NCBI GenBank assembly: GCA_017999915.1
Contig: JAGNKX010000006.1
Location: 64,077 to 128,076, forward strand
Direction of reading: 5' to 3'
DNA length: 64,000 nt
Origin: Spirochaetota bacterium
GTDB taxonomy: Bacteria; Spirochaetota; UBA4802; UBA5550
Below are positions 5,813 through 39,668 of the stretch, piece by piece. Numbering within the stretch: position 1 is the stretch's first letter; every line of letters begins with the position of its first letter. Below the pieces are notes generated by a model that did no database searches, had not been told where the DNA came from, and saw only the letters and a list, made by a program, of their open reading frames with translations. A program made the position numbers and the translations under genes.

Positions 5813-8800
5813 TTCTTGATCTCCCCGAGGGAATCAAGGGCCTCGTGGAGCTCCTTCTGGTGCCGTGTGCTTTCAAGGCGGCTCATGAGGCTGTAGGCGC
5901 AGGGGACCACGAAGAGGGTGAGGAGCGTCGACAGGAACACGCCGCCGATGACCACGACGCCCATGGGACGGGTCGTTTCCGCCCCGGGGCCGAGGGAGAG
6001 GGCCGGCGGTATGGCTGCGGCGATGGTCGCCAGCGAGGTCATTAAAATCGGCCGTAGCCGCACCGGGCAGGCGTCAAGGAGGGCCTCATGGACGTCCATG
6101 CCGGCGACGCGGCGGTGATTGGTGAAATCGACCAGCATGATGGAGTTCTTCTTCACGATCCCCATCAGGAGGAGCAGGCCGATCATGCTGTAGATGTTCA
6201 GGGATATGCCGGTCATCCTCATGGCGATGAAGGCGCCGCTGGCGCTGAAGGGCAGCGCGAGAAGGATGATGATCGGGTGCAGAAAGCTGTTGTACTGCGA
6301 CCCGAGGATCATGTAGGCCACCACGATCCCCAGGATAAGCGCGAAGATCAGGCTCTCGAAGGATTCCTTGAAGGTCTCGGAGCTTCCTGAAAAGGTGATG
6401 TGGTATTCCTGGGGGAGGACCTGCTTCGCCGTTTTCTCTATGAAGGCCAGTATGTCGGACTGGGATTTCCCCGGACCGATGTTGGCGAATATGTTGATGG
6501 CGCGCTCCCGGTTGTACCGGGTGATGGTCAGGTACGAGGGTTTTTCCGCGATATCGACGACGCTGGAGAGGGGGACCATCTCGCCGTGGATGTTCCGCAC
6601 CTTGATGCGGCTGATGTCGGTGGGCGCGCGGTTATACCGGTCCAGGAGCTTGATGCGCACGTCGTCGCGCCGTCCGGACTCGCCGGTGTACTTCGCGACG
6701 CGGAGGCTCCCCACCGAGGCGCTGATGGTGTTGGCGATGTTCGTGATAGTCACGCCGCGGTCCCTGGCCCGCTCCCGGTCCGGCGTCACCCGCACCTCCG
6801 GCATGCCGAGCTGGTAATCGGTGTCGACGTCGGTGACCAGCCCCGATTTTTCCAGCCGCTCCATCATCTTCTGGCTGTACCCGCCGAGCTTTTCCCAGTT
6901 CGGGCCCTGGACGGAGAACTGGATCGGAAAGCCGCGCTTGGCGGTAAAGCCGGCCTGGGACAGGTCCATCATGTTCGCGGTATATATGCCCGGGATCTTC
7001 CTGATTTTTTCCCTTATGAAACCCATGAATTCCTGCTGGGTGGGACGCTTCTTGAACGGGGCGGCGACGGGGCGCTCCTTGTAGTCCTTCAGGGTGATGA
7101 AGATCGTGCCCTGGTTGACCAGCCCCCCCTGGAAGCCCCCGATGTTGCCGAAGTATTTTTCCACTTCCGGCCGCTCCTTTAGCATGGCCTCGATCTTTCT
7201 GACGACCGAATCGGTGAATTCCAGCGACGAGCCGAGGGGCGTCCTTATGGTGGCGATGAAAATGCCCTGGTCCTGGGATGGCACGAACTCTTTTCGCATG
7301 CCAGGGAGCAGGAAGATGGAGGCGGCGAAGATCAGCGCGGCGGCTCCCAGCACCTTCCAGCGGTTGTCGAGGCACCGGACAAGGGCGCCCCGGTATTTCG
7401 AGGAAACGAATTCCATGAATCCGTCCATGACCCTCCCGAGCCTGGTTTCCCCGCCCTTTTGCAGCATCTGGGAGCAGCGCATCGGAGCCAGGGTCAGGGC
7501 TTCCAGGAGGGAGAGTATGACCGCCACGGAAATGGTGACGCCGAACTGAAAAAAGAACTTCCCGATGATCCCCTTCATGAACACGACCGGGATGAAGATG
7601 GCCAGGATGGCCAGGGACGCGGCCACGGCCGCGGAGGTTATCTCCCGGGCGCCCACGATGGCCGCCTTGACGCGGCTCATGCCGCTTTCGAAGTAGCGGA
7701 CGATGTTTTCCATGACCATGATGGCGTCATCCACGACGATGCCGATGACCAGGGAAAGCCCCAGGAGCGTGAAGGTGTTGAGGGTGAAGCCGAGAAAGTA
7801 GAGCACGATGAACGATCCGATGAGGGATGTCGGTATGGCCAGTATGACGTTGAAGGCGGAGCTCCACGATCCGAGAAAGAGCCAGCAGACGATCGAGGTC
7901 AGGATCACCGACAGGGTCAGGGTGAACATGAGCTCGTTGGTGGAATCCTCGATGAACTTGGTGCTGTCGAAGGAGATGTTCATCTTCATGTTCTTCGGAA
8001 GCATCCCCGAAACGTTGAGCGACTGCACCTTCTCCTTCACCTTGCGCCCCACGGCCACGGCATTGGAGCCCCGCTGCTTGATGACGCCGAGGCCGACGGC
8101 CGGCACGCCCTTGAAGCGCGCCATCCGCCTGACGTCGGCGGTCCCTTCCTCCACGGTGGCCACGTCGCCGAGCCTGATGGGCCTCCAGATCGGCTCGCCG
8201 CCGCGCCGGGTAATGATGAGCCTCTTGAATTCGTCCGGGGTCTTCGCCTCGGAAAGGACGCGGACATTGGCCTCGCGGGGACCGCTTTCTATATACCCGG
8301 AGGGGGTCAGGGTGTGCTGGCTTGATATGGTGGCGATGATGTCGTCCACGGTTATTTCCTGGCGGGCCATGCTGTCGGTGTTGAGCCATATCCGCATGTT
8401 CGGGTCCACGTAGCCGCCCATGCGCACGTCGCCCACTCCCTCGATGGTGGTGATGGCGTCCTTGAGGCGGTCGCGCAGGAAGAGCACCTTTTCCCGGGGA
8501 GACGCCGTCCCGCTCAGGGAGGTGAACATGATCGGGTTGTCCTCGGGGTTCGACTTGGTTACGATGGGCGGATCGATATCGGCGGGAAGGTTCCGCTGGG
8601 ACTGGAGGATCTTGGTCTGCACCTCCTGCAGGGCCGTGTCCACGTCGCGGGAGAGCTCGAACTCGATGGTTATGTTTGTGAGGCCCTCCATCGACGTCGA
8701 GCTGATGTTCCTGATCCCCTCGATGGTCATGACGGAATCCTCCAGCACATCGGCTATGGAGGTCTCCATGGTTTCCGGGGAGGCGCCCACCCAGGTGACG

Positions 8801-8943
8801 GTGACGGTGATGACCGGGAAATCCACGTCGGGCATCTGGCTGATCCCCATGCGGCTGAAGCCGATGGCGCCGAAGATGATAAGGCCGAACATCAGGATCC
8901 AGGCGAAGACGGTGTTTTTTATCGATATGTCAGATAGGGTCAT
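5809..8943 (-). CDS. RND efflux transporter permease (HAE1 / AcrB family).
   Basis: 1044 aa with 12-TM RND topology. The N-terminus (MTLSDISIKNTVFAWILMFGLIIFG) is typical of AcrB. The stop overlaps the ACAD stop by 4 bp (convergent). Confidence 0.9.
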   Translation of the reverse strand: MTLSDISIKNTVFAWILMFGLIIFGAIGFSRMGISQMPDVDFPVITVTVTWVGASPETMETSIADVLEDSVMTIEGIRNISSTSMEGLTNITIEFELSRDVDTALQEVQTKILQSQRNLPADIDPPIVTKSNPEDNPIMFTSLSGTASPREKVLFLRDRLKDAITTIEGVGDVRMGGYVDPNMRIWLNTDSMARQEITVDDIIATISSQHTLTPSGYIESGPREANVRVLSEAKTPDEFKRLIITRRGGEPIWRPIRLGDVATVEEGTADVRRMARFKGVPAVGLGVIKQRGSNAVAVGRKVKEKVQSLNVSGMLPKNMKMNISFDSTKFIEDSTNELMFTLTLSVILTSIVCWLFLGSWSSAFNVILAIPTSLIGSFIVLYFLGFTLNTFTLLGLSLVIGIVVDDAIMVMENIVRYFESGMSRVKAAIVGAREITSAAVAASLAILAIFIPVVFMKGIIGKFFFQFGVTISVAVILSLLEALTLAPMRCSQMLQKGGETRLGRVMDGFMEFVSSKYRGALVRCLDNRWKVLGAAALIFAASIFLLPGMRKEFVPSQDQGIFIATIRTPLGSSLEFTDSVVRKIEAMLKERPEVEKYFGNIGGFQGGLVNQGTIFITLKDYKERPVAAPFKKRPTQQEFMGFIREKIRKIPGIYTANMMDLSQAGFTAKRGFPIQFSVQGPNWEKLGGYSQKMMERLEKSGLVTDVDTDYQLGMPEVRVTPDRERARDRGVTITNIANTISASVGSLRVAKYTGESGRRDDVRIKLLDRYNRAPTDISRIKVRNIHGEMVPLSSVVDIAEKPSYLTITRYNRERAINIFANIGPGKSQSDILAFIEKTAKQVLPQEYHITFSGSSETFKESFESLIFALILGIVVAYMILGSQYNSFLHPIIILLALPFSASGAFIAMRMTGISLNIYSMIGLLLLMGIVKKNSIMLVDFTNHRRVAGMDVHEALLDACPVRLRPILMTSLATIAAAIPPALSLGPGAETTRPMGVVVIGGVFLSTLLTLFVVPCAYSLMSRLESTRHQKELHEALDSLGEIKN

Positions 8944-9073: not shown

Positions 9074-9248
9074 CCCTCACCCCCCGGCCCCCTCTCCCAT
9101 TTAAAATTGAAAAAAGGAGAGGGGGTGCATTAAAAAGAGCCCTCTCCTTTTTCCCGAACTTCATGGGAGGCAACATCTTGTACATCCATGTACGATGCTG
9201 CATGCGCGACATCCTGTCGCTTAGTGCGCGCCGAAGGCGGGGTGAGGG
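9074..9248. mobile_element. MITE-like repeat, copy A. Terminal inverted repeats are CCCTCACCCC...GGGGTGAGGG, with a CCCTCTCC/GGAGAGGG internal hairpin.
   Basis: The terminal inverted repeats were read directly. A near-identical core recurs at 27545-27667. A spurious ORF on the minus strand (MKFGKKERALFNAPPLL...) recurs with it. Confidence 0.6.
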
Positions 9249-9345
9249 TTGACCGTGTTTTTCCCTGAATATTTAAAATTCTTGATATTTTTATATTATT
9301 AGCCACGATTGTTCCCTGAATATTTAATGGGATGATTTTACACCA

Positions 9346-10836
9346 ATGAAGCTTTTTCGAATGACATATCGTACTACCCAAAAAGGCCACAGGATCCGCC
9401 TTTTTTGTGCCCCGCTACTGGGATTTCTTGCCGCTGCGCTGTTTACCGTTTCTCTTCATGCCATCGACAGCGACGTGAAAAAAATGCTCCGCGCCGCCAC
9501 CGGCGTCACCGACGAGGACGTCAGGGCGGCGTCGGGAAAAAAGGAGATCACCCTCTTCGACGCCTTCGCCCTGGCGGTGCTCAAGACCGAGCGCCTGGCC
9601 ATCGAGGGGGAGAGCGCGATCCAGGCGCAGGAGCGGAAGCTCCAGGCCATCGAGGCATGGCTCCCCTATTTTTCGCTCAGGGCGAACAAGGTCTTCCCCG
9701 ATCCGGACACCAGGCATATAAACCTGGCGCGGTCGGCCGTAAGCCTCTACCTGCGCCAGCCCATCATCACCGGCCTCAAGGAAGCTTCCCTGATCAAATC
9801 GGCGTGGTCCGACAGGAAGATCAGGGAGTACCAGCTCCATAACGGCGCGGGCCAGCTGCTGATGGACGTCGGAACGGCCTATTACTCGGTCCTCCTTCTC
9901 GAGCGCGACCTGAAAAACAACGAGGAGCTCCTCAAACTGTCCATGAAAACGGTCGGCGAGATCAGGCGCCGCGTCGATATCGGCCGGAGCAGGCAGAGCG
10001 ACCTGTTAAGGACAAACGGGCAGATATACACCCTCCAGGCGCGCATCAAGTCCCTGAGCACCGGCCTTGATCACGCGAGGCTGGTCCTGGCCGCCCTGAC
10101 CGGCATTGAGACCGAGTTTTCCCTTTCTGATTCGGTCAAGCTGAACGACCCGCCGTACACGCCCGGGGATGTCACGGCCCTCGCGGAGGCCCGCTGGGAC
10201 GTGAAGGCCGCCCGGGAGCAGAGGGAATACGCGAAGGCCGGCGTCCTCGCCGCGTACGGGGCCCATCTCCCCTCCGCGTATCTTGAAGGAAGCTACTACC
10301 TCTGGCAGGATTCTCTTTACAAGACCGATAAGACCAGGCAGCTGACGCAGCTGGCCCTTTCGTCCAATCCGGCGTCTTCGCTGCTCGGGGCGCGTCTGAA
10401 CAACGGGAACCCGACCAGGACCCGCGATTACTATTTTTCACTCGGCGCGGAGCTGCCGATCTTCGGCGGCGACATCACCTTCGCCAGGGTCCGGGAGGCC
10501 AATTCCAGGAAGCGCCAGGCCGACCTGGCATTATCGCAGGCGGTCCGTTTCGCCAGGCAGGATATCGTCGATTCGTTCCAGAACTGGGAAAGCTCGAAGG
10601 TCGAGCTCGAGGCGTACCGCAAGGCGCTGGCGTCGGCCGAGCAGAGCTACCAGGTCGTGTCGAATGAATACCGGCTGAACCAGGTGACGATCCTGGACGT
10701 GCTGACCTCGCTCACCAATCTCCAGAACGCGCGGGACGATTTCGACCGCGCCCTGCTGCAGCTCAAGCTCAACCGCATGCGCCTGGGCGTTTCCATTAAC
10801 GAGTTCACCGGCGAGAAAATCAAGTCCCTCAAGTAG
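9346..10836 (+). CDS. TolC-family outer membrane efflux protein.
   Basis: 496 aa with a signal peptide. It has two OEP repeats. It is divergent from the RND gene. Confidence 0.75.
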   Translation: MKLFRMTYRTTQKGHRIRLFCAPLLGFLAAALFTVSLHAIDSDVKKMLRAATGVTDEDVRAASGKKEITLFDAFALAVLKTERLAIEGESAIQAQERKLQAIEAWLPYFSLRANKVFPDPDTRHINLARSAVSLYLRQPIITGLKEASLIKSAWSDRKIREYQLHNGAGQLLMDVGTAYYSVLLLERDLKNNEELLKLSMKTVGEIRRRVDIGRSRQSDLLRTNGQIYTLQARIKSLSTGLDHARLVLAALTGIETEFSLSDSVKLNDPPYTPGDVTALAEARWDVKAAREQREYAKAGVLAAYGAHLPSAYLEGSYYLWQDSLYKTDKTRQLTQLALSSNPASSLLGARLNNGNPTRTRDYYFSLGAELPIFGGDITFARVREANSRKRQADLALSQAVRFARQDIVDSFQNWESSKVELEAYRKALASAEQSYQVVSNEYRLNQVTILDVLTSLTNLQNARDDFDRALLQLKLNRMRLGVSINEFTGEKIKSLK

Positions 10837-18463: not shown

Positions 18464-19537
18464 CTACCCGCGGAAATACTTCTGCTCGCCCATGCCGAAG
18501 AACCCGTCAACGGAAACCTTCAGGCCCGACGAGGGCCTGATGGCGCCGGTGAATGATCCGAAGGGTCCGTAGTAATCCGTTTTGATCGCGACCAGGTTGA
18601 GCTTCAGTGGGTTCTCGAAGACCGGCCTGAAGGCGATGTCCACCATGCCGTAGTTGTCCCTTATGGTCCATTCGCCGCTTACGCCGCTGGGACGGTTAAA
18701 GGTAACCGGCGGCAGCAGGTGCAGCTTATTTCCCAGCCAGAGGCAATTCTCGTTATAGCGCTCCTTGTCGCGCACCTGGTTGTCGGTCAGGTTGAAGCCG
18801 GTGAGGCCTTTGTCCGTGAAAGAGGCGCCGGTGACCCAATCGTATTTAAGAATATACGGATAAAATCCCTTGTGATCGTCCATGATGGCGAAGCTGACCC
18901 GCTTCGGGAAGTCGATCTTCCGGCCTTCGAAAAAGAGGGTCCCCTGCATCGGCATCAGGCATTTATGGGAATACATGCCCCGGTTGGCGGCGAAGGGGAG
19001 GCTCACCACAAGGGGATTCACCGCTCCTTTTTCGTGGAAGGCCTCGAAGTGACCGTACAGGGACGGCAGCCTGTCGTCGGCGTCGATGGCCACGTCAATG
19101 AATATCCTGCCCCGGTCCAGCTTGTTGTGCACGTCGATGCGGAAGCTATCCGAAACATAGCGCGCCCTGGTGTCGCCCAGGGAGGAGGGAACGGCGGTCA
19201 CCCAGGAGGGAACCTTTTTTTCATACTTGGTCATCCGCCCGTTTTTTTTGTCGCAGACGATGAACTGGACCAGGGTCCCCGCCTTCTGGTTGTAGATCAC
19301 GGCGAGCATGAAAAAGTCCCTGTTGCCGAGCTGGAAGGCCTGCCATTCCTTGAGACGGAAATTCCTGAAAAAGCGGGGGAGAGGAACGCCGAAGGGCCTG
19401 GCCGCGTCAAGGGGATTGATCTTTTTCAGGGGCCCGTTGAAGGTGCCGAAGGCAATCCTGCCATTCGTAACCAGGCATTCCGGCGGGGGAAGAATCTCCC
19501 GGGAGTATATCGGCTGCTTCATTGGTTGTTTTGTCAT
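18464..19537 (-). CDS. Conserved hypothetical protein (possibly a DUF2804-like family).
   Basis: 357 aa. No catalytic motifs were recognised. The family assignment is from memory only. Confidence 0.4.
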   Translation of the reverse strand: MTKQPMKQPIYSREILPPPECLVTNGRIAFGTFNGPLKKINPLDAARPFGVPLPRFFRNFRLKEWQAFQLGNRDFFMLAVIYNQKAGTLVQFIVCDKKNGRMTKYEKKVPSWVTAVPSSLGDTRARYVSDSFRIDVHNKLDRGRIFIDVAIDADDRLPSLYGHFEAFHEKGAVNPLVVSLPFAANRGMYSHKCLMPMQGTLFFEGRKIDFPKRVSFAIMDDHKGFYPYILKYDWVTGASFTDKGLTGFNLTDNQVRDKERYNENCLWLGNKLHLLPPVTFNRPSGVSGEWTIRDNYGMVDIAFRPVFENPLKLNLVAIKTDYYGPFGSFTGAIRPSSGLKVSVDGFFGMGEQKYFRG

Positions 19538-19676
19538 ACTGTTTCCTCTCCAGTCAATGATTTGGATCTACCGATTTTATTTGCCCATAATCGAACAGAG
19601 CAATAAACAGGCAGGAATTAGATCGTTTATAATAAGTAACTCGGGTCAGGTGTTTTTTAATATAAATAAATAACAA

Positions 19677-19914
19677 CGAATTTGATATCTCATTTTTTCG
19701 ATGTGATATATAATAGAATACTTTAATTTATCCTAAAACGAGCAAAACATGGATGTTTTGCGTTAAGCGAGGATGGTCGCCGACGTGGTTTTGACATCCT
19801 GTCAATGTCGGCACTGCCAACCTCCTGTTGGCAGCAGATGGACCCTCCGCAGCAAAACAAACGATTACAAATAGCTCTCTAACGAAACGAGTAAAAAATG
19901 AGATATCAAATTCG
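19677..19914. mobile_element. 238-bp element bounded by perfect 22-bp terminal inverted repeats CGAATTTGATATCTCATTTTTT. The GC-rich core carries several hairpins. It may be a MITE, an invertible DNA segment or a structured RNA.
   Basis: The terminal inverted repeats are at 19677-19698 and 19893-19914 (exact reverse complements). The core hairpins are GACAT-CCTGTCA-ATGTC and CTGCCAAC-CTCCT-GTTGGCAG. Confidence 0.55.
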
Positions 19915-20004
19915 CTAATATCACATATAATAATAAAAAACGCCTGACTCAAGTAAATAATATAGAATTGTTAATAGTCGAGAAGAAATTAATCAAAAAA
20001 ATCA

Positions 20005-20055
20005 TTGACACCAGAACCCTACTGAATATAGTTCACATATTGAATATTATTCAAT
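20005..20055 (+). promoter_or_regulatory. Promoter of xsc. The -35 is TTGACA at 20005-20010, followed by a 16-bp spacer and a -10 TATAGT at 20027-20032. Two operators, TGAATATAGTTCA and ATTGAATA-T-TATTCAAT, overlap the -10 and the transcription start.
   Basis: Read directly. There is a perfect 8-1-8 palindrome at 20039-20055. The RBS GGAGG lies 8 bp before the ATG. Confidence 0.55.
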
Positions 20056-20080
20056 AATTTTTACCCCGCTGGAGGCTGAA

Positions 20081-21805
20081 ATGACAAAAATGACCCCATC
20101 CGAAGCATTCGTTGAATCACTGGTAGCCGAGGGAATAACCACCACCTTTGGTATCGTCGGGAGCGCCTACATGGACGCCCTGGACCTTTATCCTACGGCG
20201 GGGATACGCTTCATTTCCGTGGCCCACGAGCAGGCTGCGGCCCATGCGGCTGACGGCCTTGCCCGGGTGACCGGCAGGCCCCAGACCTGCATCGCCCAGA
20301 ACGGGCCCGGCGCCGCAAACTTCATATCCGCCATAACCGCTGCCTTCTGGGCCCATTCGCCGGTGGTGGCCATCACCCCGGAGACAGGCAGCATGGGCAT
20401 CGGCACCGGCGGGTTCCAGGAGCTCGACCAGATGCCCTGGTTCGAGAAATGCACCAAGTTCCAGGTCCGGGTAAACCGGCCCGAGCGGATGGCGGAGCTG
20501 ACCCGCCGCTGCTTCTACATGGCAAAGCTCCTGTCCGGCCCGGTGCAGCTCAACATCCCCCGGGACTTCTACTATGGCGATTTGGACTGCGAGATATTCA
20601 AATCGGGCGACGTCAATTACGGCAGCGGCCCCGAGGGTCTGATCAAGAAAGCGGCGGAGCTCCTGGCCAAAGCGAAGAACCCGGTCATCCTCGCCGGCGG
20701 CGGCGTATCCATGGCCAACGCCATTGATGAGACAAAGGCCCTGGCGGAGTACCTTACCTCGCCGGTGGTGAACACCTATCTCCATAACGACACATTCCCG
20801 GCGGCCCACGAGCTGGCCGTGGGCCCCATCGGCTACTGCGGGTCCAAGGCGGCCATGCGCTCCATCGCGAAGGCCGACGTGGTCCTGGCACTGGGAACGC
20901 GCCTGGGGCCCTTCGGCACGCTGCCCCAGTACGACATAGCCTACTGGCCAAATTCGGCGAAGCTCATCCAGGTCGACATCGACGGCACCCAGCTGGGCGT
21001 TTCGAAGAGGATCGACCTCGGCATCGTGGCCGACGCGCGGGAGTTCGCCCTGCAGCTCCTGAAGGCCCTGAAGGCCGTCGACGGGAGCCGTCAGAAGAAC
21101 ACGGCCCGCCTGGCCGATATCGCGAAGGAAAAGGCCGCCTGGAAGGAGGAGCTCGATTCCTGGTCCTCCTCGACCAACAAGCTGATGCACCCGCGCCGCT
21201 TCATCAAGGAGCTCACCGACGCCATTCCCGACGGGTCCATCGTGGCCACGGACATCGGCAATAATTCATCAATTTGCAACAGTTACCTGAAGTTTACCGG
21301 ACCGCGCCAGCACATCTCGGCCCTCTCCTGGGGGAACTGCGGCTTCGCCTACGGGGCCGCCATGGGCGCCAAGATAGGGGCCCCGGGCACGCCGGTCTTC
21401 GCCCTCCAGGGCGACGGCGCCTACGGCATCAGCGGCCTCTCGGAAGTGATGACCGCGGTGCGGGAGAACATCCCCGTCATAGCGGTGGTCTTCAACAACC
21501 ACGAGTGGGGCGCGGAGAAAAAGAACCAGATCGACTTCTTCAAGAGCCGCTTTGTCGGCGCTGATTTATTGACGAACCCGGACTACGACCAGGTGGCGAA
21601 GGACATGGGCGCCGTCGGCTTCAAGGTGGAGAACTACGCCGACGTGAAGGACGTCGTCCGCGAGGCGGTGAAGTGCGGCAAGCCCGTGGTCATCAACGCG
21701 GTGATCGAGGGCGGCGAGAAGGTCCTGGCGGAGCCGTTCCGCCGCGACGCCTTCAAGCCGGCGGTGCGCTACCTGCCCAAGTACAAGCACCTGAGCGCCG
21801 TGTAG
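20081..21805 (+). CDS. xsc: Sulfoacetaldehyde acetyltransferase (ThDP-dependent); produces acetyl phosphate and sulfite.
   Basis: 574 aa. It has Xsc-specific stretches (GTGGFQELDQMPWFE, NIPRDFYYG, HNDTFPAAHELAVGPIGYCGSKAAMRSIAKADVVLALGTRLGPFGTLPQYDIAYWP). These match characterised Xsc far better than generic ALS. Confidence 0.85.
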   Translation: MTKMTPSEAFVESLVAEGITTTFGIVGSAYMDALDLYPTAGIRFISVAHEQAAAHAADGLARVTGRPQTCIAQNGPGAANFISAITAAFWAHSPVVAITPETGSMGIGTGGFQELDQMPWFEKCTKFQVRVNRPERMAELTRRCFYMAKLLSGPVQLNIPRDFYYGDLDCEIFKSGDVNYGSGPEGLIKKAAELLAKAKNPVILAGGGVSMANAIDETKALAEYLTSPVVNTYLHNDTFPAAHELAVGPIGYCGSKAAMRSIAKADVVLALGTRLGPFGTLPQYDIAYWPNSAKLIQVDIDGTQLGVSKRIDLGIVADAREFALQLLKALKAVDGSRQKNTARLADIAKEKAAWKEELDSWSSSTNKLMHPRRFIKELTDAIPDGSIVATDIGNNSSICNSYLKFTGPRQHISALSWGNCGFAYGAAMGAKIGAPGTPVFALQGDGAYGISGLSEVMTAVRENIPVIAVVFNNHEWGAEKKNQIDFFKSRFVGADLLTNPDYDQVAKDMGAVGFKVENYADVKDVVREAVKCGKPVVINAVIEGGEKVLAEPFRRDAFKPAVRYLPKYKHLSAV

Positions 21806-23361: not shown

Positions 23362-23425
23362 TTGACAGGGGAAGAGTTGTCCGACATAGTCTCATATAAT
23401 GAATATTATTCATAATATGAATATA
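23362..23425 (+). promoter_or_regulatory. Promoter of the SDR operon. The -35 is TTGACA at 23362-23367, followed by 17 bp and a -10 CATAGT (there is also a TATAAT at 23395-23400). Operators are ATGAATA-T-TATTCAT at 23399-23413 and an extra ATGAATAT half-site at 23418-23425.
   Basis: Read directly. It has the same TGAATA-T-TATTCA core as the xsc operator. Confidence 0.5.
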
Positions 23426-23517
23426 ATTTATTGCAAGCAGTTTATTATGGCAGCGGCAAAAAAAGCGAAAATCCGGGTTGTGCGGCATCGACGGCATGAC
23501 CCTTCAGGAGAACAATC

Positions 23518-24456: not shown

Positions 24457-26151
24457 ATGGAAAAGATGATCGGCGGAAGACTTGCCGCGGAAGCCCTTAT
24501 AGAACGCGGCGTGAAGTATATTTTTACCATAAGCGGCGGACACATAACCCCGGTTTATGAATTTCTCGAGAATACCAGCGTGAAGCTGTTTTGCACGCGC
24601 CACGAGCAGGCGGCGGTCTTCATGGCCGAAGCCATGGCGCGCATGACGCGGCAGCCCGCCGTGGCGATGGTGACCGCGGGGCCCGGCTTCACCAACGCCC
24701 TCACGGGGATCGCCAGCGCCCGCCTCGCCAACGCGCCGGTCATTCTCATCTCGGGCATCGTGGGTCTGGAGATGTCGGAGAAGCTTGACCTCCAGGACAT
24801 GGTCCAGCTCCCCGTGATCCAGCCGATGGTGAAAAAGGCCCTGGTGTGCAACAACGTCGAGCGGATACCTGAATTCATCGATATGGCCTTCCGGTACGCC
24901 ATGCAGGGGCGTCCCGGACCGGTGTACCTGGAGATACCCGTGGACGTGCTGAACGCGAAGCCCGACATGGGCAAGGTAAAGAAATACCAGAGCACCATCG
25001 TGTCGAAGACCGTGGACACGGCGGCGGCGGAAAAGATCGTGGACATGCTCGGCCAGGCGAAGAAGCCGATCGTCATAGCCGGGAGCGGCGCCTGGTGCGC
25101 CGACGCCGGTCCGGAGCTCGTATCGTTTGTCGAGAAGACGGGAATGCCCGCCATGACCATGGCCGGCGCCCGCGGCCTTATCCCCGACACGCACCCACTC
25201 TGCTTTGAATCGGCCCTGGCCATCCGGCCGGGGGCGGCCCTGGTGGCCGACACCCAGGCGGACCTTGTCCTCTTCCTCGGATCGCGTCTGAGCCTTTTTT
25301 TCATTTTCGGGGGCATCTTCAACCCGAACGCCAAGTTCATACAGGTCGACATCGAGGCGGAGGAGATCGGACGGAACCGTTCCGTGGACCTCGGCGTGGT
25401 GAGCGATATCAAGATGCTGCTGGCGGAGATCAACCGGATCATCGACGCCCGGAAGCTCGGGCCGTCCCTCGTGAAGCAGTACGCGGAATGGGTGGAGGCG
25501 GTCAAGGCCGCGGACGCCAACGGCAAGGCCCAGGCGAAGCCGATGTGGGAAAAGGAGGGAGCGCCGATCCATCCGATGCGGCTGGCCCATGAGATCAACA
25601 AGTTCATGGACCGCGAGGACGACATCGTCGTGGCCGACGGCGGGGACACCACCACCTGGATGGGGATGACCCGCACCGTGCGCCGGCCGGGGCATTATCT
25701 CGATTACGGCCTCTTCGGCAGCCTGGCCGTGGGCATACCCTACGCCAACGCGGCCAAGCTCATCAATCCGGACAAGCGGGTTCTCCTGGTCATCGGCGAC
25801 GGGGCCGCGGGATTCAACTTCATGGAGTTCCACACCGCCATCCGGCACAACATTCCGATCGTGGTGGTCGTGGCCAACGACACCCTCTTCGGCATGATCG
25901 CCCACAGCCAGCAGATCCGCCTCGGCCACGCCATCAAGGACGGGACCGACCTGGGCATGGTCAATTACGAGAAGATGGTGGAGGCACTGGGCGGCTTCGG
26001 CGCCTTTGTCGACAAGCCAGAGGACATCCGGCCGGCCATCGAGGCGGCCTTCAAGTCCGGCAAGACCGCCTGTATCAACGTGATGGTCGATCCGTCGACG
26101 ATCAGTCCGGGCAGTGTGGCCCTGGCCAACCTGGGGGCGTACAAGGCCTAA
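24457..26151 (+). CDS. ThDP-dependent enzyme of the 2-hydroxyacyl-CoA lyase / oxalyl-CoA decarboxylase (HACL/Oxc) subfamily.
   Basis: 564 aa. YIFTISGGHITPV, RHEQAAVFMAEAMARMT...AGPGFTNALTG and GRPGPVYLEIPVDVL align with HACL1/Oxc rather than with Xsc or ALS. Confidence 0.65.
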   Translation: MEKMIGGRLAAEALIERGVKYIFTISGGHITPVYEFLENTSVKLFCTRHEQAAVFMAEAMARMTRQPAVAMVTAGPGFTNALTGIASARLANAPVILISGIVGLEMSEKLDLQDMVQLPVIQPMVKKALVCNNVERIPEFIDMAFRYAMQGRPGPVYLEIPVDVLNAKPDMGKVKKYQSTIVSKTVDTAAAEKIVDMLGQAKKPIVIAGSGAWCADAGPELVSFVEKTGMPAMTMAGARGLIPDTHPLCFESALAIRPGAALVADTQADLVLFLGSRLSLFFIFGGIFNPNAKFIQVDIEAEEIGRNRSVDLGVVSDIKMLLAEINRIIDARKLGPSLVKQYAEWVEAVKAADANGKAQAKPMWEKEGAPIHPMRLAHEINKFMDREDDIVVADGGDTTTWMGMTRTVRRPGHYLDYGLFGSLAVGIPYANAAKLINPDKRVLLVIGDGAAGFNFMEFHTAIRHNIPIVVVVANDTLFGMIAHSQQIRLGHAIKDGTDLGMVNYEKMVEALGGFGAFVDKPEDIRPAIEAAFKSGKTACINVMVDPSTISPGSVALANLGAYKA

Positions 26152-26241: not shown

Positions 26242-27534
26242 ATGATGAACGGTCAAAGCGGTACCCATGAATACAAATTATCCAGGGGGTATACGAACTA
26301 TGTTTTCATCCTCCTGTTCCTCCTCTACTTCTTCGACTACGTGGACCGCATGGTGGTCACGTCGCTCTTTCCCTATATCAAGGAGGAGTGGGCCATCTCC
26401 GACGCCCAGTGCGGCATGCTGGTGTCCGCCATCTACTGGTCCATTATCATATTCACCATTCCGGCGTCGGTGCTGGTAGACCGCTGGAGCCGGAAGAAGA
26501 CCATCGGACTCATGGCGGTCATCTGGAGCATCGCCACCGCCGTGTGCGCCCTTACCAAGAATTTCGGCCAGCTCTTTGCCGCGCGGGGCGTCATCGGGGT
26601 GGGCGAGGCCGGGTACGCGCCGGGCGGCACCGCCATGCTCGCGGGCCTCTACCCGGAGGAAAAGCGGTCGAGGATGATGGGCATCTGGAACGCCTCCATA
26701 CCGCTGGGAAGCGCCGTGGGCATAGCCCTGGGCGGCATTATAGCCAAGGAGTTCGGATGGCGCCACGCCTTCGGCCTGGTCGCCCTGCCGGGCCTGATCG
26801 TGGCGATCCTCTTCTTTTTCGTCAAGGATTACAAGACCGTGGAGCTGGTCAAGACCGCGGATGTTGGCGGTTCCAAGGTCGCCATGAGCAAGATGGACAT
26901 ATTCAGGGAATTCATCCACACCCCGTCGCTCATCTTCACCTATTTCGGCTTCGCGGCCATGACCTTCGTGACCACGTCGCTCATCACCTGGCTCCCGACC
27001 TTCTTCCACCGCGTCTATGAACTGCCCATGGACCAGGCGGGAATGAAGGGGGGCTCGGTAATGCTCCTTGCGCTGGTGGGCGCGCCGGTGGGCGGGCTCC
27101 TCGCGGACCTGTGGCTGAAGAAAAGAAAGAACGCCCGCCTTGTGTTCTCGTCGATCGTGGCGGTCCTTTCCGCGATCTTTCTCGGATCGGGGCTGCTCTT
27201 CTTTACCGGCAACATGCAGTACGTACTCATACTGCTCATGGGCCTGGTGGTGGTCGCCTTCGTGCCGGCCGCGGCCGCGGTGACCCAGGACGTGGTGCAC
27301 CCCGGACTCCGGGCCATATCCTACGCCCTGTGCGTCATAGTGCAGAATCTTCTGGGCTCTTCCATGGGGCCCATCGTGGTAGGCTCCATTTCCGACGGCT
27401 ATAACATACAGACGGCCCTCTCCATTCTGCCGATATTCCTGCTCGTCGCGGCGGCGCTTTTCTTCGTGGCTTCGTTGTTCTACGAGCGGGACCTGGACAA
27501 GGTGGAAAAGGTGACGCTGGAAGTGGAGGGCTGA
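26242..27534 (+). CDS. MFS transporter.
   Basis: 430 aa with 12 predicted TM segments. It has an MFS signature (GRWSRKKT, GVGEAGYAPGG). Confidence 0.8.
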   Translation: MMNGQSGTHEYKLSRGYTNYVFILLFLLYFFDYVDRMVVTSLFPYIKEEWAISDAQCGMLVSAIYWSIIIFTIPASVLVDRWSRKKTIGLMAVIWSIATAVCALTKNFGQLFAARGVIGVGEAGYAPGGTAMLAGLYPEEKRSRMMGIWNASIPLGSAVGIALGGIIAKEFGWRHAFGLVALPGLIVAILFFFVKDYKTVELVKTADVGGSKVAMSKMDIFREFIHTPSLIFTYFGFAAMTFVTTSLITWLPTFFHRVYELPMDQAGMKGGSVMLLALVGAPVGGLLADLWLKKRKNARLVFSSIVAVLSAIFLGSGLLFFTGNMQYVLILLMGLVVVAFVPAAAAVTQDVVHPGLRAISYALCVIVQNLLGSSMGPIVVGSISDGYNIQTALSILPIFLLVAAALFFVASLFYERDLDKVEKVTLEVEG

Positions 27535-29263: not shown

Positions 29264-30865
29264 TTAAAGGTCCCACTTGATGATAGGGGCCTTGACGTCC
29301 ACCATGGCGTTGACGATGAGCTCGACGAGCCCGCCGTAGGCCATCCCCGATTTTTCCCGTACCCCGTAATAATCGAAGAGGTCCCTGATCTGTCCCTTGC
29401 AGTTGGAGCAGGGAGCGCACAGGTATTTTTTTGTATCCGGACCGGGGCAGTCGGCAAAGGCCTCCAGTATCTGCCGGAGCTTCATCCTCCCCGCCACGCT
29501 CACACGCCAGTCCCGGAAGTTGTTCTGGCCCATAATGGCGAAGCCGCTCCCGCCGCCGCAGCAGTAGTTATCCGCGCCGTGGGGCTCCATCTCGCGGAAC
29601 TGCGGGCAGAGCTTCCGGATGATGCGGCGCTGGGGCTCCACGATGCCCAGGTTCCGCACGATGTTGCACGGGTCGTGGAGGGTCACCGGGAAGTCGTTCT
29701 TCGACGGGTCGAAGGCGATCCGGCCGCCCATGACGATCTCCTCCAGGAAGGTGAGGGAGCTCTCCCGGGGGATGTTCAGGTCTCCGGTGAGGATGCGGTC
29801 CGCTATGGTTATCAGGGCCTTGTGGGCGTGGCCGCACTCGCCGAGAATCACTTTCTTGACCTTGAGCTTCTTCGCGGCCTCCATGTGCTTCATCACGATG
29901 CGGGAGAGCTGCACGTCGTCGTAGAAGAGGCCGTAGTTCACGCTGTCGTAGGCGGGTGCCTCGGACGACAGGGTCCAGCTCACGCCGGCCGCGTTCAGGA
30001 TGATGGCGAAGGCGGCAGGATTCTCAGGCCAGGCCAGGATCTCGCCAGCGTTGTGCATGAGGAGCACGTCGGCGCCCTCTTTGTCCCAGGGCGTTTCGAT
30101 GGTTATGCCCAGCTCCTCGGACAGGTCCTCGTCGAGGAAGTCGACGTTGTCTTTCACCACGTTCGGCTTCATGCCGGTGGATGATCCGACCGCGAGTTGG
30201 AGCACAGTTCCCTTCTCGTGGAGCTCCTTCGGCGCCCAGCCGAGCTCCTGGCTGAAGAGCTTGCGGAGCTCCCTGGTCACCAGGGCGTTGTCGAGGCCCA
30301 TGGGGCAGGCCTGGGCGCAGCGCCGGCAGAGGGTGCACCGGTATGAAAGCTCGTAAAGGCGGCTCACCGCGGTCCAGTTCAGGTCGATATCCTCGAGCCT
30401 GAGCTTCGCCATGATCCCGCCGCCGGGTCTCGCGTATTTTTTAACCAGCCGCCGGAACACCTCGGAGCGGTACGTGGGGCGGTAGATCTCGTTCCCGCCG
30501 CTTTCGCGGTAGATCGGGCAGGCCTGGGAGCAGGTCTGGCACCGGGCGCAGTAGTCTATCGTGAGGAGGAGCGGCTGGAGGAAGGTCCAGTTGTTCTCCC
30601 GCGATAGGAGCTTTTGGAGCCCGGCGATGAAAGCTTCGACGACGCGCCGCTCATCGGCCGCGTCCTTCGGCTTCGGAAGGGAGAGGGCCGCCACGCCGTC
30701 GAGGTCGCAGGCAATGGTGTTGCGCTGGTCGTCGCTGAGCTTTTTCCATCCGGGCTGGTCCTCGATCCGGTCATAGGGAGGCGGGAGGGGAAGGAGGTCG
30801 TTGACGTTTATCTCGGTGAGGGGCGCCTCGCCCCTGCTTATATCTTTGATCCCTGTTTTTTTCAT
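29264..30865 (-). CDS. DsrK/HdrD-like iron-sulfur protein (paralog). It has two ferredoxin CxxCxxCxxxCP motifs plus a C-terminal CCG domain.
   Basis: 533 aa. It has CARCQTCSQACP, CTLCRRCAQACP and ...YCCGGGSG. It is a paralog of the DsrK at 34085-35710. Confidence 0.7.
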   Translation of the reverse strand: MKKTGIKDISRGEAPLTEINVNDLLPLPPPYDRIEDQPGWKKLSDDQRNTIACDLDGVAALSLPKPKDAADERRVVEAFIAGLQKLLSRENNWTFLQPLLLTIDYCARCQTCSQACPIYRESGGNEIYRPTYRSEVFRRLVKKYARPGGGIMAKLRLEDIDLNWTAVSRLYELSYRCTLCRRCAQACPMGLDNALVTRELRKLFSQELGWAPKELHEKGTVLQLAVGSSTGMKPNVVKDNVDFLDEDLSEELGITIETPWDKEGADVLLMHNAGEILAWPENPAAFAIILNAAGVSWTLSSEAPAYDSVNYGLFYDDVQLSRIVMKHMEAAKKLKVKKVILGECGHAHKALITIADRILTGDLNIPRESSLTFLEEIVMGGRIAFDPSKNDFPVTLHDPCNIVRNLGIVEPQRRIIRKLCPQFREMEPHGADNYCCGGGSGFAIMGQNNFRDWRVSVAGRMKLRQILEAFADCPGPDTKKYLCAPCSNCKGQIRDLFDYYGVREKSGMAYGGLVELIVNAMVDVKAPIIKWDL

Positions 30866-30868
30866 TAT

Positions 30869-31765
30869 CTATTTCCCCTGAGCGATATCGATCCAATTTT
30901 TTGAGCCCTCCGATCCGACATGGGGAGCGGACCATCGGACCGGTTGGCCGAGCAGCTTTTTTATCTTCTCTTCAGCGGCCGCGTCCATGGGGCTATCGTC
31001 CCAGAGGACGCTGTGAAAGGTGAAGAATTTCGCGGCAAAGTGCCTCATGGAGGTGAAGGGAAGCACGGCCAGGAAGAAGAGGACCGCGCCGATGTGCGCC
31101 GCCCCTGCCCGTGACAGTGAAATATGCGAATCGGCCCTGAATACCGCTTCGATGAAGTCCCTGATCTGGGAGGCCAGGTCGCCGTCCGCGACCAGGGAGG
31201 ACACGCCCGTGGCGAAAAGGGCCAGCAGGATGATCAGGTTCAGGTAGGCCGAGATCCCGGAGTAGGAGCGGAGGTCCCGGCGCACCGCCCGCAGCACCAG
31301 CAGCGACAGTGACCCGGCGAGGCCGAAGAGGTAGCCAATGGTGCCGAGGAAAACGGCTATTCCTTCGAGGAAAGCCGCGGCGGAAGAGAACCCGGCCGCG
31401 TCGACAGCGGCGGCGGCCGCCAGGCACAGCGCCATGAAGAAGATGAAGTAGATGCCGCCATGGAGGGCCATCGAAAAGGGCCAGAGCCGCCTGTGTCCCT
31501 TCCATACGGTGTGGAGAAGGAAAATTTCCTTCATCATATAAATGATTTCATGAATTATGGAGCGCTCCCGGGGCTTCATCCACCAGTCCTGCACCTCGAA
31601 ATAAGAGCCTCCGTAGGATGAGCCGGCCCTGTCATGGGGCACCGGCGCGAGCTCCCACCGGAGATGGGCCGGTAGGCGGGCGATGCGGACAATGCACGCC
31701 GCGATGCCTGCGATGAAGATTGCGATAGATGAGTAAGCGGCAATGAGCCAGATTGTTCCGTTCAT
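30869..31765 (-). CDS. DsrM/NarI-like membrane cytochrome b (paralog); the likely partner of the preceding DsrK-like gene.
   Basis: About 299 aa from the internal MNGTIWL start, which has an RBS. It is a polytopic membrane protein. Confidence 0.6.
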   Translation of the reverse strand: MNGTIWLIAAYSSIAIFIAGIAACIVRIARLPAHLRWELAPVPHDRAGSSYGGSYFEVQDWWMKPRERSIIHEIIYMMKEIFLLHTVWKGHRRLWPFSMALHGGIYFIFFMALCLAAAAAVDAAGFSSAAAFLEGIAVFLGTIGYLFGLAGSLSLLVLRAVRRDLRSYSGISAYLNLIILLALFATGVSSLVADGDLASQIRDFIEAVFRADSHISLSRAGAAHIGAVLFFLAVLPFTSMRHFAAKFFTFHSVLWDDSPMDAAAEEKIKKLLGQPVRWSAPHVGSEGSKNWIDIAQGK

Positions 31766-31782
31766 GGGTCCTCCAGGGTGCG

Positions 31783-32931
31783 TCAATCTCTCCGCCGCAC
31801 CGCGGCTGTTATCTTGAAGAGCAGGGTAAGGATGAAAAGCCCCGTTGCCCACACGCCGAGGGTGATGAATACTTCGGCCAGGGTGGGCCGGTACGACGGT
31901 ATCTTCTCGAGGGGATCGGGGATGAATCCTCCCACCACGAAGCCGAGGCCCTTCTCGATCCACACGGAGGCGAACACGGCGATGGCCGCGATAAGAAGGC
32001 CCGCGTCGCGCCGCCGCGCCGGCGTGTAGAGAATCGCCAAGGCGGCGACTGCCAGGGCTATGGAAATCCACATATAGGGCGTGAGCGACGAGGGATCACC
32101 CCAGCCCCAGAAGAGCCGCTCCAGCGGCGCCCGGTGCGTGGGGATGCCGCTGTAGAGGGCGGTGAATATTTCGAGAATAATGAAAAAGACATGGGCGCTG
32201 AAGGCGTAGGTGATGATGGTCCCCAGGGAGCGCTCGGGCCGGTCGCCCGGGTCGAAATCCGTATAGCGCCGCGCCACGCGGCAGAGCACGATGAGGAGGG
32301 CCGGGCCGGAGGAAAAGGCCGACGCCAGGAAGCGCGCCGCCGTGATGGCCGTGAGCCAGAGGTGCCGCCCCGGGAGCCCCGCGTACAGGAAGGCGGTCAC
32401 GGTGTGGATGCTGATCGCCCAGGGGATCGACAGGTAGATGACCGGCTTCACCCAGGCGGGCGGCGGCGTTCCCCGGTGCTCGGCCGTGAGGACCGTCCAC
32501 CCGATCAGGATGTTGATTACCAGGTATAGGGAAAGGACCACCGTGTCCCAGAACATGGGGGACGTCGGCGACGGATAGAGTATGACGTGGAGTATCCGGA
32601 AGGGCTGTCCCAGGTCGACGAAGATAAAGAGAAGGCACATGACGACCGCGGACACCGCCAGGAATTCCCCCAGGATCGTGATCCTGCCGAAGGCCCGGTG
32701 GTCGTGGAGGTAGTAGGGGAGCACCACCGTCACGGCCGAGGCGGCCACGCCCACCAGGAAGGTGAACTGGGCGATGTAGAGGCCCCAGGACACGCTCCGG
32801 GACATGCCGGTAACGGAAAGACCCTCTGTTGTCTGTTTAAAGTAAAAGAATATCCCCGCTGCGATGAAGAGGCCCAGTGCCAGGAGAAGGAGCCAGTAGC
32901 GCCGCGGGCCATGGAACACTTTTTCTATCAT
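31783..32931 (-). CDS. dsrP: DsrP (NrfD/PsrC-family integral membrane subunit).
   Basis: About 382 aa from MIEKVFHGP (GAGG RBS upstream). It has 10 predicted TM helices and the NrfD family pattern. It is the last gene of dsrMKJOP. Confidence 0.75.
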   Translation of the reverse strand: MIEKVFHGPRRYWLLLLALGLFIAAGIFFYFKQTTEGLSVTGMSRSVSWGLYIAQFTFLVGVAASAVTVVLPYYLHDHRAFGRITILGEFLAVSAVVMCLLFIFVDLGQPFRILHVILYPSPTSPMFWDTVVLSLYLVINILIGWTVLTAEHRGTPPPAWVKPVIYLSIPWAISIHTVTAFLYAGLPGRHLWLTAITAARFLASAFSSGPALLIVLCRVARRYTDFDPGDRPERSLGTIITYAFSAHVFFIILEIFTALYSGIPTHRAPLERLFWGWGDPSSLTPYMWISIALAVAALAILYTPARRRDAGLLIAAIAVFASVWIEKGLGFVVGGFIPDPLEKIPSYRPTLAEVFITLGVWATGLFILTLLFKITAAVRRRD

Positions 32932-32938
32932 GGAATCC

Positions 32939-33709
32939 TCACAGGAGATAGTATACGGCCGGGTCGGTCCCGAGCTCCGGTTTTCGCCGGAGGGCGATCC
33001 TTCCGGCCAGTGCCTTCCGCACCGCCGAGGCGCCATCGCGGAGGTCGCCGAAGGCAATGGCCTTTTCACCGCAGGCGGACGCGCACAGGGGCTCCTGGCC
33101 GCGGTCGACCCGCTCCGCGCAGAACTCGCATTTTTCCACGGTCCCCTTGGTGCGGGTCGGGTAGTCTTTATTGATAGATTGCTTCGCCAGGTATTTTCGC
33201 GGGTCGCTCCAGTTGAAGCTCCGGGAGCCGTAGGGGCAGGCAGCCATGCAGTAGTGGCAGCCGATGCAGCGGTGCTGGTCCATCATGACGATGCCGTCGC
33301 CGCGCTTCCAGGTCGCGCCGGTGGGGCACACCCGCACGCAGGGCGGGTTCCCGCACTGGTTGCAGAGAAGCACCGGTTTCGCGCCGCGCAGTTCCCCGCC
33401 GGAAAAGTCGTCCAGGACGCCGGGCATGGCGCGCTCCAGGTCGTCCCGCCAGATCCAGGCGATGGCCCGCTTCACGTCCGGTATGGCCGGCACGTTGTGG
33501 CCCCGGTGGCAGGCGTCGACGCACTTCTCGCACTGCCCCGCCTTCAGGCAGGCCCGGAGGTCCACCGCCATGGCGAGGCGTTTTCCGGCCGGCGGCGCGG
33601 TTTCGGCGCCGAGGGCTTTGCCGGCCATGATCTCGAAGGAGGCGCCGCCGAATATGATGATGCCGGTGCGCCAGGCCTTTCTCAGGAATTCAAGCCGTGT
33701 CAGTTCCAT
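32939..33709 (-). CDS. dsrO: DsrO (periplasmic FeS ferredoxin-like subunit, PsrB/HmcB family).
   Basis: 256 aa. It has multiple 4Fe-4S motifs (CNQCGNPPCVRVCP, CIGCHYCMAACP, CEFCAERVDRG). It has an N-terminal Tat-like signal. Confidence 0.75.
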   Translation of the reverse strand: MELTRLEFLRKAWRTGIIIFGGASFEIMAGKALGAETAPPAGKRLAMAVDLRACLKAGQCEKCVDACHRGHNVPAIPDVKRAIAWIWRDDLERAMPGVLDDFSGGELRGAKPVLLCNQCGNPPCVRVCPTGATWKRGDGIVMMDQHRCIGCHYCMAACPYGSRSFNWSDPRKYLAKQSINKDYPTRTKGTVEKCEFCAERVDRGQEPLCASACGEKAIAFGDLRDGASAVRKALAGRIALRRKPELGTDPAVYYLL

Positions 33710-37192: not shown

Positions 37193-37221
37193 GGTGTGAT
37201 TGTGCGGCCGGAGGCGTCCCG

Positions 37222-37262
37222 TGTCAATTAAAAAATGAATGGTATTCATTTTTTAATTGACA
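37222..37262. promoter_or_regulatory. 41-bp near-perfect palindrome TGTCAATTAAAAAATGAATG-G-TATTCATTTTTTAATTGACA, a divergent dsr promoter/operator. It has TTGACA -35 hexamers on both strands flanking a central AAAAAATGAAT-GGT-ATTCATTTTTT inverted repeat.
   Basis: Read directly. On the plus strand, TTGACA at 37257-37262 is followed by 16-17 bp and TAGATT, with the RBS GAGGAGG before dsrA. On the minus strand, a mirrored -35 is followed by 17 bp and CACAAT. Near-identical copies lie at 42317-42349 and 44098-44135. Confidence 0.6.
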
Positions 37263-37319
37263 TTCAGTGAATGGCCCCTAGATTGGTGATATCGATATTA
37301 AATTTTGAGGAGGTGACCC

Positions 37320-38486: not shown

Positions 38487-38507
38487 CTATCGCAGGAGGA
38501 AAACATT

Positions 38508-39661: not shown

Positions 39662-39668
39662 CTTGTTA

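Follow-up and report, generated by a model that had tools for sequence, protein, structure and literature searches.

Upstream of the xsc promoter, in a 64,000-nucleotide (nt) stretch of a Spirochaetota bacterium genome (assembly GCA_017999915.1, contig JAGNKX010000006.1, positions 64,077 to 128,076 of the forward strand; hereafter the window), lies a 238-bp element bounded by perfect 22-bp inverted repeats (19677-19914 of the window). We tentatively propose, with slightly less than even confidence, that this element is the DNA of a structured RNA, whose arms would serve as a clamp and whose GGA-containing loops may be bound by a CsrA-like dimeric protein. A sequence-only reading of the window had considered three explanations, namely a miniature inverted-repeat transposable element (MITE), an invertible switch and a structured RNA, and the last is now the best supported of the three: a homologue is present in a distant genome, a two-hairpin module recurs within the clade, the stems of this module covary and the element is unevenly conserved. 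According to the proposed mechanism, the 22-nt arms would pair and clamp the ends of a small, rod-like RNA, the interior would fold into hairpins with the GGA loops AUGGAU, AGGAU and AGGAG, and a pair of these loops would be offered to CsrA or to another RNA-binding dimer of similar kind. The RNA might work either by itself, as a decoy, or within a larger transcript, as a segment of a long leader or of a 3' untranslated region. CsrA is a global post-transcriptional regulator, which is also encoded in spirochaetes.

The segments of the element that have a counterpart in the distant genome, an uncultured Leptospirales metagenome-assembled genome (MAG) referred to as L017, are called the frame here, which is read as comprising a left outer motif, the clamp, a hairpin with an AUGGAU loop and a two-tier stem. 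The element and its flanks contain the following features:

19677 to 19698, no strand: left arm of the perfect 22-bp repeat, proposed as one half of a closing helix (5' half on the plus strand, 3' half on the minus strand)
19893 to 19914, no strand: right arm of the repeat, with a conserved CTAATA directly after it
19639 to 19658, plus strand: left outer motif ACTCGGGTCAGGTGTTTTTT, kept 5' of the left arm in L017
19935 to 19954, minus strand: right outer motif, an inverted second copy, which reads ACTTGAGTCAGGCGTTTTTT and has no counterpart on that side in L017
19742 to 19761, plus strand: hairpin A of the frame, GCAAAAC-AUGGAU-GUUUUGC, in a 29-nt block of which 28 positions are identical in L017
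19767 to 19853, plus strand: hairpin B of the frame, a two-tier stem (GCGAGGAUGGUC ... GACC.UCC...GC), whose loop is here replaced by a nested module
19779 to 19834, minus strand: nested module M1, an alignment gap relative to L017
19852 to 19859, plus strand: second copy of GCAAAACA, which rivals 19742-19749 for pairing with UGUUUUGC at 19754-19761

Direct comparison of the sequence and a repeat finder both confirm that the arms are exact reverse complements, as originally described; the left arm is CGAATTTGATATCTCATTTTTT, and 194 nt lie between the two. A pattern search allowing up to three mismatches found only these two copies of the arm in the whole window, with 0.00 expected in 100 shuffles. 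The palindrome is larger than first reported: it extends to 29 nt at 90% (19670-19698 / 19893-19921; repeat finder), and a second, outer pair (19632-19663 / 19930-19961) is 78% complementary, so that the full arms reach about 62 nt at about 80% identity (19639-19698 versus 19893-19954). The hairpins that had been named in the core exist as well, TTGAC-ATCCT-GTCAA at 19791-19805 and CTGCCAAC-CTCCT-GTTGGCAG at 19814-19834, and so do the two copies of the repeated GCAAAACA (19742-19749 and 19852-19859). The core had been called GC-rich, which holds only moderately, as the sequence between the arms has 44% GC and positions 19779-19834 have 57%. The folding energy of the element corresponds to z = -6.7 on the minus strand and z = -7.1 on the plus strand. 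The element is identical in sequence and orientation in eight contigs of the same species, which were assembled independently of each other and derive from seven sequencing runs and a GenBank assembly; it is therefore no assembly artefact. No conserved open reading frame (ORF) covers the element, and an indel of 55-56 nt relative to L017 breaks every reading frame.

A scan of 185,579 species genomes (one per species, the home genome not being among them) with an exact 20-mer of the arm matched five genomes, among which L017 is the sole true homologue; the other four were rejected as single matches in unrelated taxa, about the number that chance would give for a 20-mer. The 20-mer occurs once in the L017 genome, whose GC content is 43% compared with 60% in the window. 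L017:2697-2945 aligns with window positions 19633-19925 at 83% identity (blastn E 1e-35 and 7e-25), with 39 differences in 229 aligned positions (17%), and these differences are distributed unevenly: the arm blocks contain one difference in 56 positions (P 3.6e-4 under a uniform rate) and the hairpin-A block one in 29, whereas the AT-rich linkers are 26-60% divergent. The left arm together with its flanks (CAACGAATTTGATATCTCATTTTTTCGA) is identical at 28 of 28 positions, and the right arm of L017 has one changed base, which yields a U.G pair on the plus strand and A.C on the minus strand. Both copies have in common the left outer motif, the arms, the hairpin GCAAAAC-AUGGAU-GUUUUGC and the two-tier stem, as well as a direct repeat, AAACGAG(C/T)AAAA(C/A)ATG, at 19736-19751 and 19885-19900, the second copy of which overlaps the inner end of the right arm. 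The L017 copy lacks the right outer motif of the window and about 56 nt corresponding to 19779-19834, and its stem is capped at that place by GGUCC-AGGAU-GGACC. The left outer motif of the window differs by three transitions both from the L017 copy and from the window's own right-hand copy, which is identical to the L017 left motif (ACTTGAGTCAGGCGTTTTTT) at 20 of 20 positions. Since the shared region reaches about 40 nt beyond the left arm and only 6-8 nt beyond the right arm, it fits a promoter followed by an RNA gene better than a symmetric transposon. The left outer motif may be a promoter or a protein-binding region.

The second line of evidence is a two-hairpin module. On one strand, a simple hairpin, whose loop is AGGAU, AGGAG or AUGGAU, is joined by a short linker to a two-tier hairpin, whose loop is AGGAU or AUGGAU, and a longer helix closes the module in every instance. 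It was found four times in the clade: twice in the window (M1 and M2), at L019:191-245 and at L009:5474-5528 (M5), where L019 and L009 are two of the three closest relatives at the xsc locus. L017:2821-2875 is a weaker fifth candidate. On its minus strand, M1 reads CUGCCAAC-AGGAG-GUUGGCAG, then GCCGAC[UUGAC-AGGAU-GUCAA]GUCGGC. M2 (9171-9221, minus strand) contains GCGAC-AGGAU-GUCGC and GUAC-AUGGAU-GUAC and is part of a further element:

9074 to 9248, minus strand: second member of the architectural class, unrelated in sequence, with the closing helix CCCTCACCCC / GGGGTGAGGG (z -5.9 for the minus-strand fold)

This element has an additional long hairpin, CCCCCTCTCC / GGAGAGGGGG, and is located between the gene for an AcrB-type pump (5809-8943, minus strand) and an OEP gene (9346-10836, plus strand). 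The module of L019 lies within an insertion of about 145 nt that is described below. M5 comprises CUC-AGGAU-GAG and GGCAC-AGGAU-GUGCC on the plus strand, directly 3' of ackA, and is enclosed by a GCCCCCC / GGGGGGC stem followed by UUUC (L009:5446-5545); the window has no counterpart at that place. In all five candidates, the minimum-energy fold consists of a simple and a two-tier hairpin with GGA in the loops, i.e., the paired GGA motifs in loops of short hairpins that mark Csr/Rsm-type RNAs. The stems differ completely between instances, and the loops are conserved.

An alignment of the five modules with MAFFT was rejected as misaligned, and a covariance model (R1) was therefore seeded from the L019 module alone and searched over 1.2 Mb. 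Among the non-self matches, M1 and M2 ranked first and second (20 bits, E 0.06, and 18.1 bits, E 0.17). A second model, built from the L019 module, M1 and M2, found L009:5474-5528, on which it had not been trained, at 31 bits (E 8.5e-4), with the next match at 15 bits; the L017 core scored 11.7 bits with the module model, on the plus strand only. Compensatory double changes affect 10 of the 16 pairs and 97.9% of the cells are paired, a level reached by none of 500 shuffles, in an alignment of three sequences that was fitted to the structure. Where transitions have introduced mismatches into the helices, these are G.U pairs on the GGA strand, with two cases in the L019 clamp and one each in the outer stem of M2, hairpin A of M5 and the L017 arm. 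We also considered that the hairpins of the window form a REP-like family of identical copies and rejected this, as the stems have no common sequence. As a separate observation, G/C-rich hairpins made of CCCTCCCC / GGGGAGGG-type runs, e.g. CTCCCCCTTGATGGGGGAG and CCCCTCCCATCAAGGGAGGGG, are found at 45190-45310 in the intergenic region 5' of an adenylate-cyclase gene; they resemble a run at 9086-9135.

Taken at face value, the window copy reads as a composite of a frame homologous to L017 and of M1, which is nested in it in antisense. The GGA loops of the frame are on the plus strand in L017, and the loop of hairpin A on this strand in the window matches the AYGGAY or (A/U)CANGGANG(U/A) type; the second GGA loop of the frame would have been replaced by the 56-nt M1 in the opposite orientation. 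M1 being antisense, the minus strand therefore reads clamp, simple GGA hairpin and two-tier GGA hairpin, which is the layout of the L019 element in the same intergenic region, and an intact inverted outer motif would lie upstream of this reading. We consider the minus strand the more likely functional strand in the window because of this L019-like layout, the intact right outer motif and a promoter-like site that overlaps this motif (TTTACT-16-TATTAT, 19957-19930, a consensus match). On the minus strand, hairpin A resembles a weak terminator-like hairpin followed by UCGUUUU. Both copies of GCAAAACA compete for a single UGUUUUGC, and the two resulting structures exclude each other. L017 retains all three 8-mers, and the alternative pairing is seen in the minimum-energy fold of L017 and in the consensus fold of the minus strand. 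It is tempting to speculate that the two exclusive folds act as a switch.

Comparison with known RNA families places the element near two predicted ones. The Rfam scan that had been suggested gave only sub-threshold matches, to TwoAYGGAY and Bacillaceae-1. The Bacillaceae-1 model (RF01690) matches M1 with 25.4 bits (19769-19831, plus strand) and M2 with 17.2 bits (9159-9220, plus strand), both below the gathering score of 35, and both modules align end to end with the 67 positions of the model. TwoAYGGAY (RF01731) matches the L019 element with 25.5 bits (local E 0.069) along all 168 positions of the model, including the external stem, on the GGA strand, and the two-hairpin core of L017 with 19 bits, short of the gathering score of 43; no match with E <= 10 was obtained for window positions 19400-20200. 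TwoAYGGAY belongs to the Rfam clan CL00106, 'Csr-Rsm protein binding'. According to Gardner and Eldai, the CsrA-binding motif is matched both by TwoAYGGAY and by Bacillaceae-1 in reverse complement, and the strand of the Bacillaceae-1 family is uncertain (PMC4333381). The GGA motifs described here are on the strand opposite to the Bacillaceae-1 match, and our strand assignments agree with that reading. A CsrA-type partner is proposed because the architecture is that of TwoAYGGAY and of reverse-complemented Bacillaceae-1, for both of which binding to CsrA, a homodimer, has been predicted in the literature.

The apparent likeness to TwoAYGGAY comprises a long external stem around two hairpins, of which the simple one comes first and the longer one second, no fixed gene context, and an AUGGAU loop (19742-19761, and in L017) that fits AYGGAY literally. 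Two loops inside the 22-bp stem are present on the plus strand of L017 (AUGGAU and AGGAU) and on the minus strand of the window (AGGAG and AGGAU), whereas the plus strand of the window has the AUGGAU hairpin alone. In contrast to the family, the second loop is a 5-nt AGGAU rather than a 6-nt AYGGAY, the 22-bp clamp is perfectly paired, a nested antisense module is present in the window copy, and the hosts are Spirochaetota instead of Clostridia, Gammaproteobacteria or the human gut. Bacillaceae-1 likewise combines a two-tier and a simple hairpin, and its UCCU loops on the annotated strand correspond to AGGA on the other; however, it comes from another phylum, and the modules described here are always inside a further long closing helix and are not near rRNA operons. 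With CsrB, RsmY and RsmZ, the element shares GGA motifs in hairpin loops at a spacing that would allow one CsrA dimer to bind two of them, and the loop context ACAUGGAUGU / ACAGGAUGU resembles what we take to be the high-affinity CsrA consensus from systematic evolution of ligands by exponential enrichment (SELEX) and RsmE-RNA structures. It differs from them by having only two to three GGA sites, no typical GC-rich terminator and no sequence homology; CsrB has a much larger number of GGA sites. Taken together, the element is best read as a candidate CsrA-binding RNA of the TwoAYGGAY / Bacillaceae-1 type, a hypothetical class, and it scores below both Rfam thresholds.

Several observations weigh against an RNA function. 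At gathering thresholds, Rfam contains no family that matches anywhere in the window, and a scan for tRNA and tmRNA was negative. In DNA as GC-rich as this, short hairpins that carry GGA or UCC in the loop occur fairly often, and the frame, with the window and L017 as its two members, shows no compensatory change. The strand evidence for the frame conflicts: the arm mismatch in L017, the GGA loops and the conserved left flank favour the plus strand, whereas M1, the intact right outer motif, an extension of the helix by 3 bp via two G.U pairs and the terminator-like hairpin at 19761-19742 favour the minus strand, and both strands fold equally well. Perfect duplexes of 22 bp are unusual in stable bacterial small RNAs, and that of the clamp would be a substrate of RNase III. 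Neither csrA nor a CsrA domain was found in the ORFs of the window. Finally, the copies are 83% identical although the GC contents of the genomes are 60% and 43%, which points to horizontal transfer; an ordinary small RNA gene on the chromosome does not account for this.

The element could also be an inert palindromic remnant that arose by local inverted duplication, template switching or decay and whose GGA loops are coincidental. The conflicting strand signals, the three transitions in the left outer motif, the nested insertion, which deprives the frame of its second GGA loop on the plus strand, and the lack of any such element in the closest relative L018 would all be in line with decay; however, hardly any change separates the arms and the first hairpin of two very distant genomes whose linkers are 26-60% different, eight samples carry one and the same fixed sequence, and the module recurs with compensatory changes in its stems. 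We therefore regard an inert remnant as unlikely.

The genomic setting bears on the question of whether the element is mobile. It sits in an intergenic region of 543 nt, which has 35% GC in a window of 60% GC and is flanked by two genes:

18464 to 19537, minus strand: DUF2804 gene
20081 to 21805, plus strand: xsc, followed by ackA

Homologues of the xsc product are named sulfoacetaldehyde acetyltransferase, and the closest are from Spirochaetota MAGs. The element was absent from all 80 metagenome xsc loci of relatives and from all four loci that were fetched individually; at these loci, only about 88 nt comprising the promoter and the operator can be aligned. In the three closest relatives (L009, L018 and L019), Xsc is 92-93% identical, and L009 shares the DUF2804-xsc gene order; their intergenic regions nevertheless differ from the window and from one another, and the region can thus be regarded as a slot that gains and loses structured elements. 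None of these is present upstream of xsc in L018. Compared with L018, L019 contains a clean insertion of about 145 nt (L019:92-236), which is bounded by the 7-bp direct repeat ATAAAAT, while the flanks are about 93% identical; the closing helix of the L019 element measures 23 bp, two of which are U.G pairs on the minus strand. The L009 element has the same ends and the same site as that of L019 and a different interior. A homology of the window frame with the L009 intergenic region was rejected, since the score was within the range of shuffled sequences. A conserved motif, AGTCGAGAA, is found at 19976-19984, between the DUF2804 gene and the xsc promoter, and also in L018, L019 and L009; the element of the window is to the left of this motif and those of L019 and L009 are to its right. 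For the DUF2804 gene of L018 and L019, the reverse complement of this motif is a possible -35 region (TCGACT-17-CATAAT). Promoter assignments for either strand of the element and for the DUF2804 gene gave weak consensus matches only and were not relied on.

These data are partly in favour of a MITE, i.e., of a miniature palindrome similar to Correia, ERIC or RPE elements, which was inserted upstream of xsc, whose arms are transposase-binding repeats and which has no RNA function of its own. This explanation is doubtful but deserves to be taken seriously. Like those families, the elements described here measure 150-320 bp, are non-coding and intergenic, lie next to promoters and possess long terminal inverted repeats, which would fold as a rod when transcribed, and their presence is polymorphic between L018 and L019. 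An insertion would account for an AT-rich element in a 60% GC genome, for its absence from all 80 relatives' xsc loci, even with 92-93% Xsc identity and equal gene order, and for the copy at an unrelated locus of L017, whose GC content is very different; the window arms extend to about 62 nt as terminal repeats, whose conservation is expected of a MITE, the neighbouring L019 element is a clean insertion flanked by a direct repeat, and one element is nested in another, the module inside the frame. The earlier statement that no target-site duplication is visible was confirmed for the 22-bp and the 62-bp arms: at 19677/19914 as at 19632/19961, the flanks have no more than the 3-nt ATA in common, in AT-rich sequence. 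Likewise, searches of the window found no second copy of the element, as had been stated. The MITE explanation, which was right in that the element is small, non-coding, absent from this locus in the closest relatives and present elsewhere in a distant genome, thus falls short in these two respects, and also because the arm 20-mer is single in L017, with four chance-level single matches among the other species genomes, and because the unit common to L017 and the window is asymmetric. In contrast to Correia, ERIC and RPE elements, there is no sign of multiple copies in the window or, judged by the arm 20-mer, in L017, and the interior blocks are as conserved as the ends. Moreover, the module instances within one genome have loops and shape in common but no stem sequence, unlike copies of a master element.

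Searches for traces of mobility elsewhere were negative. The wider stretch of the L017 contig encodes PhD/ParE, an esterase and polyketide synthase/non-ribosomal peptide synthetase (PKS/NRPS) genes and no transposase; when relatives of the L017 locus were sought via its acyltransferase, the nearest homologue was 45% identical and no orthologous loci were obtained. A blastn search with the 356-bp region matched nothing in phage and plasmid collections, three scans of viral contigs (with the hairpin block, a degenerate arm and the outer motif) had no match, and a six-frame composite query for spurious ORFs over other copies found none among 5.8 billion predicted proteins. A MITE-like mobile origin is plausible all the same, and it is compatible with an RNA function rather than exclusive of it.

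The third explanation, an invertible promoter segment that switches transcription to xsc or to the DUF2804 gene by means of a recombinase encoded elsewhere, has become very improbable. The length of the arms (22 bp) and their spacing (194 bp) are within the range of known invertons, TTGATA in the left arm is followed 18 nt downstream by TG-n-TATATA, which might form an inward-facing promoter, and the contig L002 (GCA_016277765) begins inside the element at window position 19837; this break, however, is in the middle of the core and not at an arm, and at consensus level all eight independent assemblies agree in orientation and do not differ at any position. The window encodes no recombinase, as noted before: no recombinase or transposase domain was detected in any of the ORFs scanned. 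The element does lie upstream of the xsc promoter, as had been stated, but this promoter (TTGACA-16-TATAGT, 20005-20032) is not enclosed by the repeat and begins 90 nt beyond the right arm; a palindromic TGAATAT operator is likewise outside, and both are conserved in relatives, including those that lack the element. The L017 homologue is located between two convergent genes at a locus unrelated to xsc, so that there is nothing to switch, and the two homologues differ by 55-56 nt in the spacing of their arms. The invertible switch was thus not borne out. The same difference in spacing led us to drop a DNA-looping operator pair. 6S RNA and Y RNA were dropped for want of an Rfam signal, and three further candidates were dropped upon inspection: a retron msr-msd, as no reverse transcriptase gene is nearby, an integron attC site, as there are no R'/R'' cores, and a bidirectional terminator, as the T-runs face inward.

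With regard to the surroundings, palindromic boxes of the TGAATAT type, e.g. ATTGAATATTATTCAAT, are found at 20023-20056, 23395-23432, 9263-9276 and 9315-9328, that is, at the promoters of xsc and of an SDR gene (23518) and 5' of the outer-membrane efflux gene (9346), and many relatives keep the box upstream of xsc. A single regulator in charge of a sulfonate regulon probably uses this box as its operator. Genes for dissimilatory sulfite reduction are located about 10-20 kb from xsc-ackA (29264-42250), with two other genes nearer to xsc:

24457 to 26151: second thiamine pyrophosphate (TPP) enzyme, nearer to xsc than the dsr genes
26242 to 27534: MFS transporter, nearer to xsc than the dsr genes
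29264 to 35710: NrfD, Fer4, CCG and nitrate-reductase-gamma-like genes (dsrMKJOP-like)
37320 to 39566: dsrAB-like NIR_SIR pair
41933 to 42250: DsrC

This gene set suggests a sulfonate-respiring spirochaete.

To our knowledge, CsrA-titrating decoy RNAs have been proven only in Gammaproteobacteria, TwoAYGGAY and Bacillaceae-1 being predictions, and the CsrA of spirochaetes is thought to be antagonised by FliW only; we know of no sponge RNA there. A clade-specific family in sulfonate-degrading, sulfite-reducing Spirochaetota, with conserved GGA loops, covarying stems and a long clamp, would carry the CsrA-decoy prediction to a new phylum, and as short RNAs that can be synthesised, its members are suited to binding tests. 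The more general lesson is that a perfect inverted repeat beside a promoter need not mean a transposon end or an inverton but can be the closing helix of an RNA. The composite with its antisense-nested module and the homologue in a second genome raise the question of how RNA modules spread. A more far-reaching and quite unlikely possibility is that the element is a self-contained, horizontally transferable cassette for a CsrA-titrating RNA, in which a promoter-like motif, the 22-bp clamp and the GGA hairpins would move together between distant spirochaetes and the module could be exchanged or nested in either orientation. If true, these would be the first decoy RNAs of the Csr/Rsm type in Spirochaetota, and an example of a regulatory RNA that behaves as a miniature mobile element.

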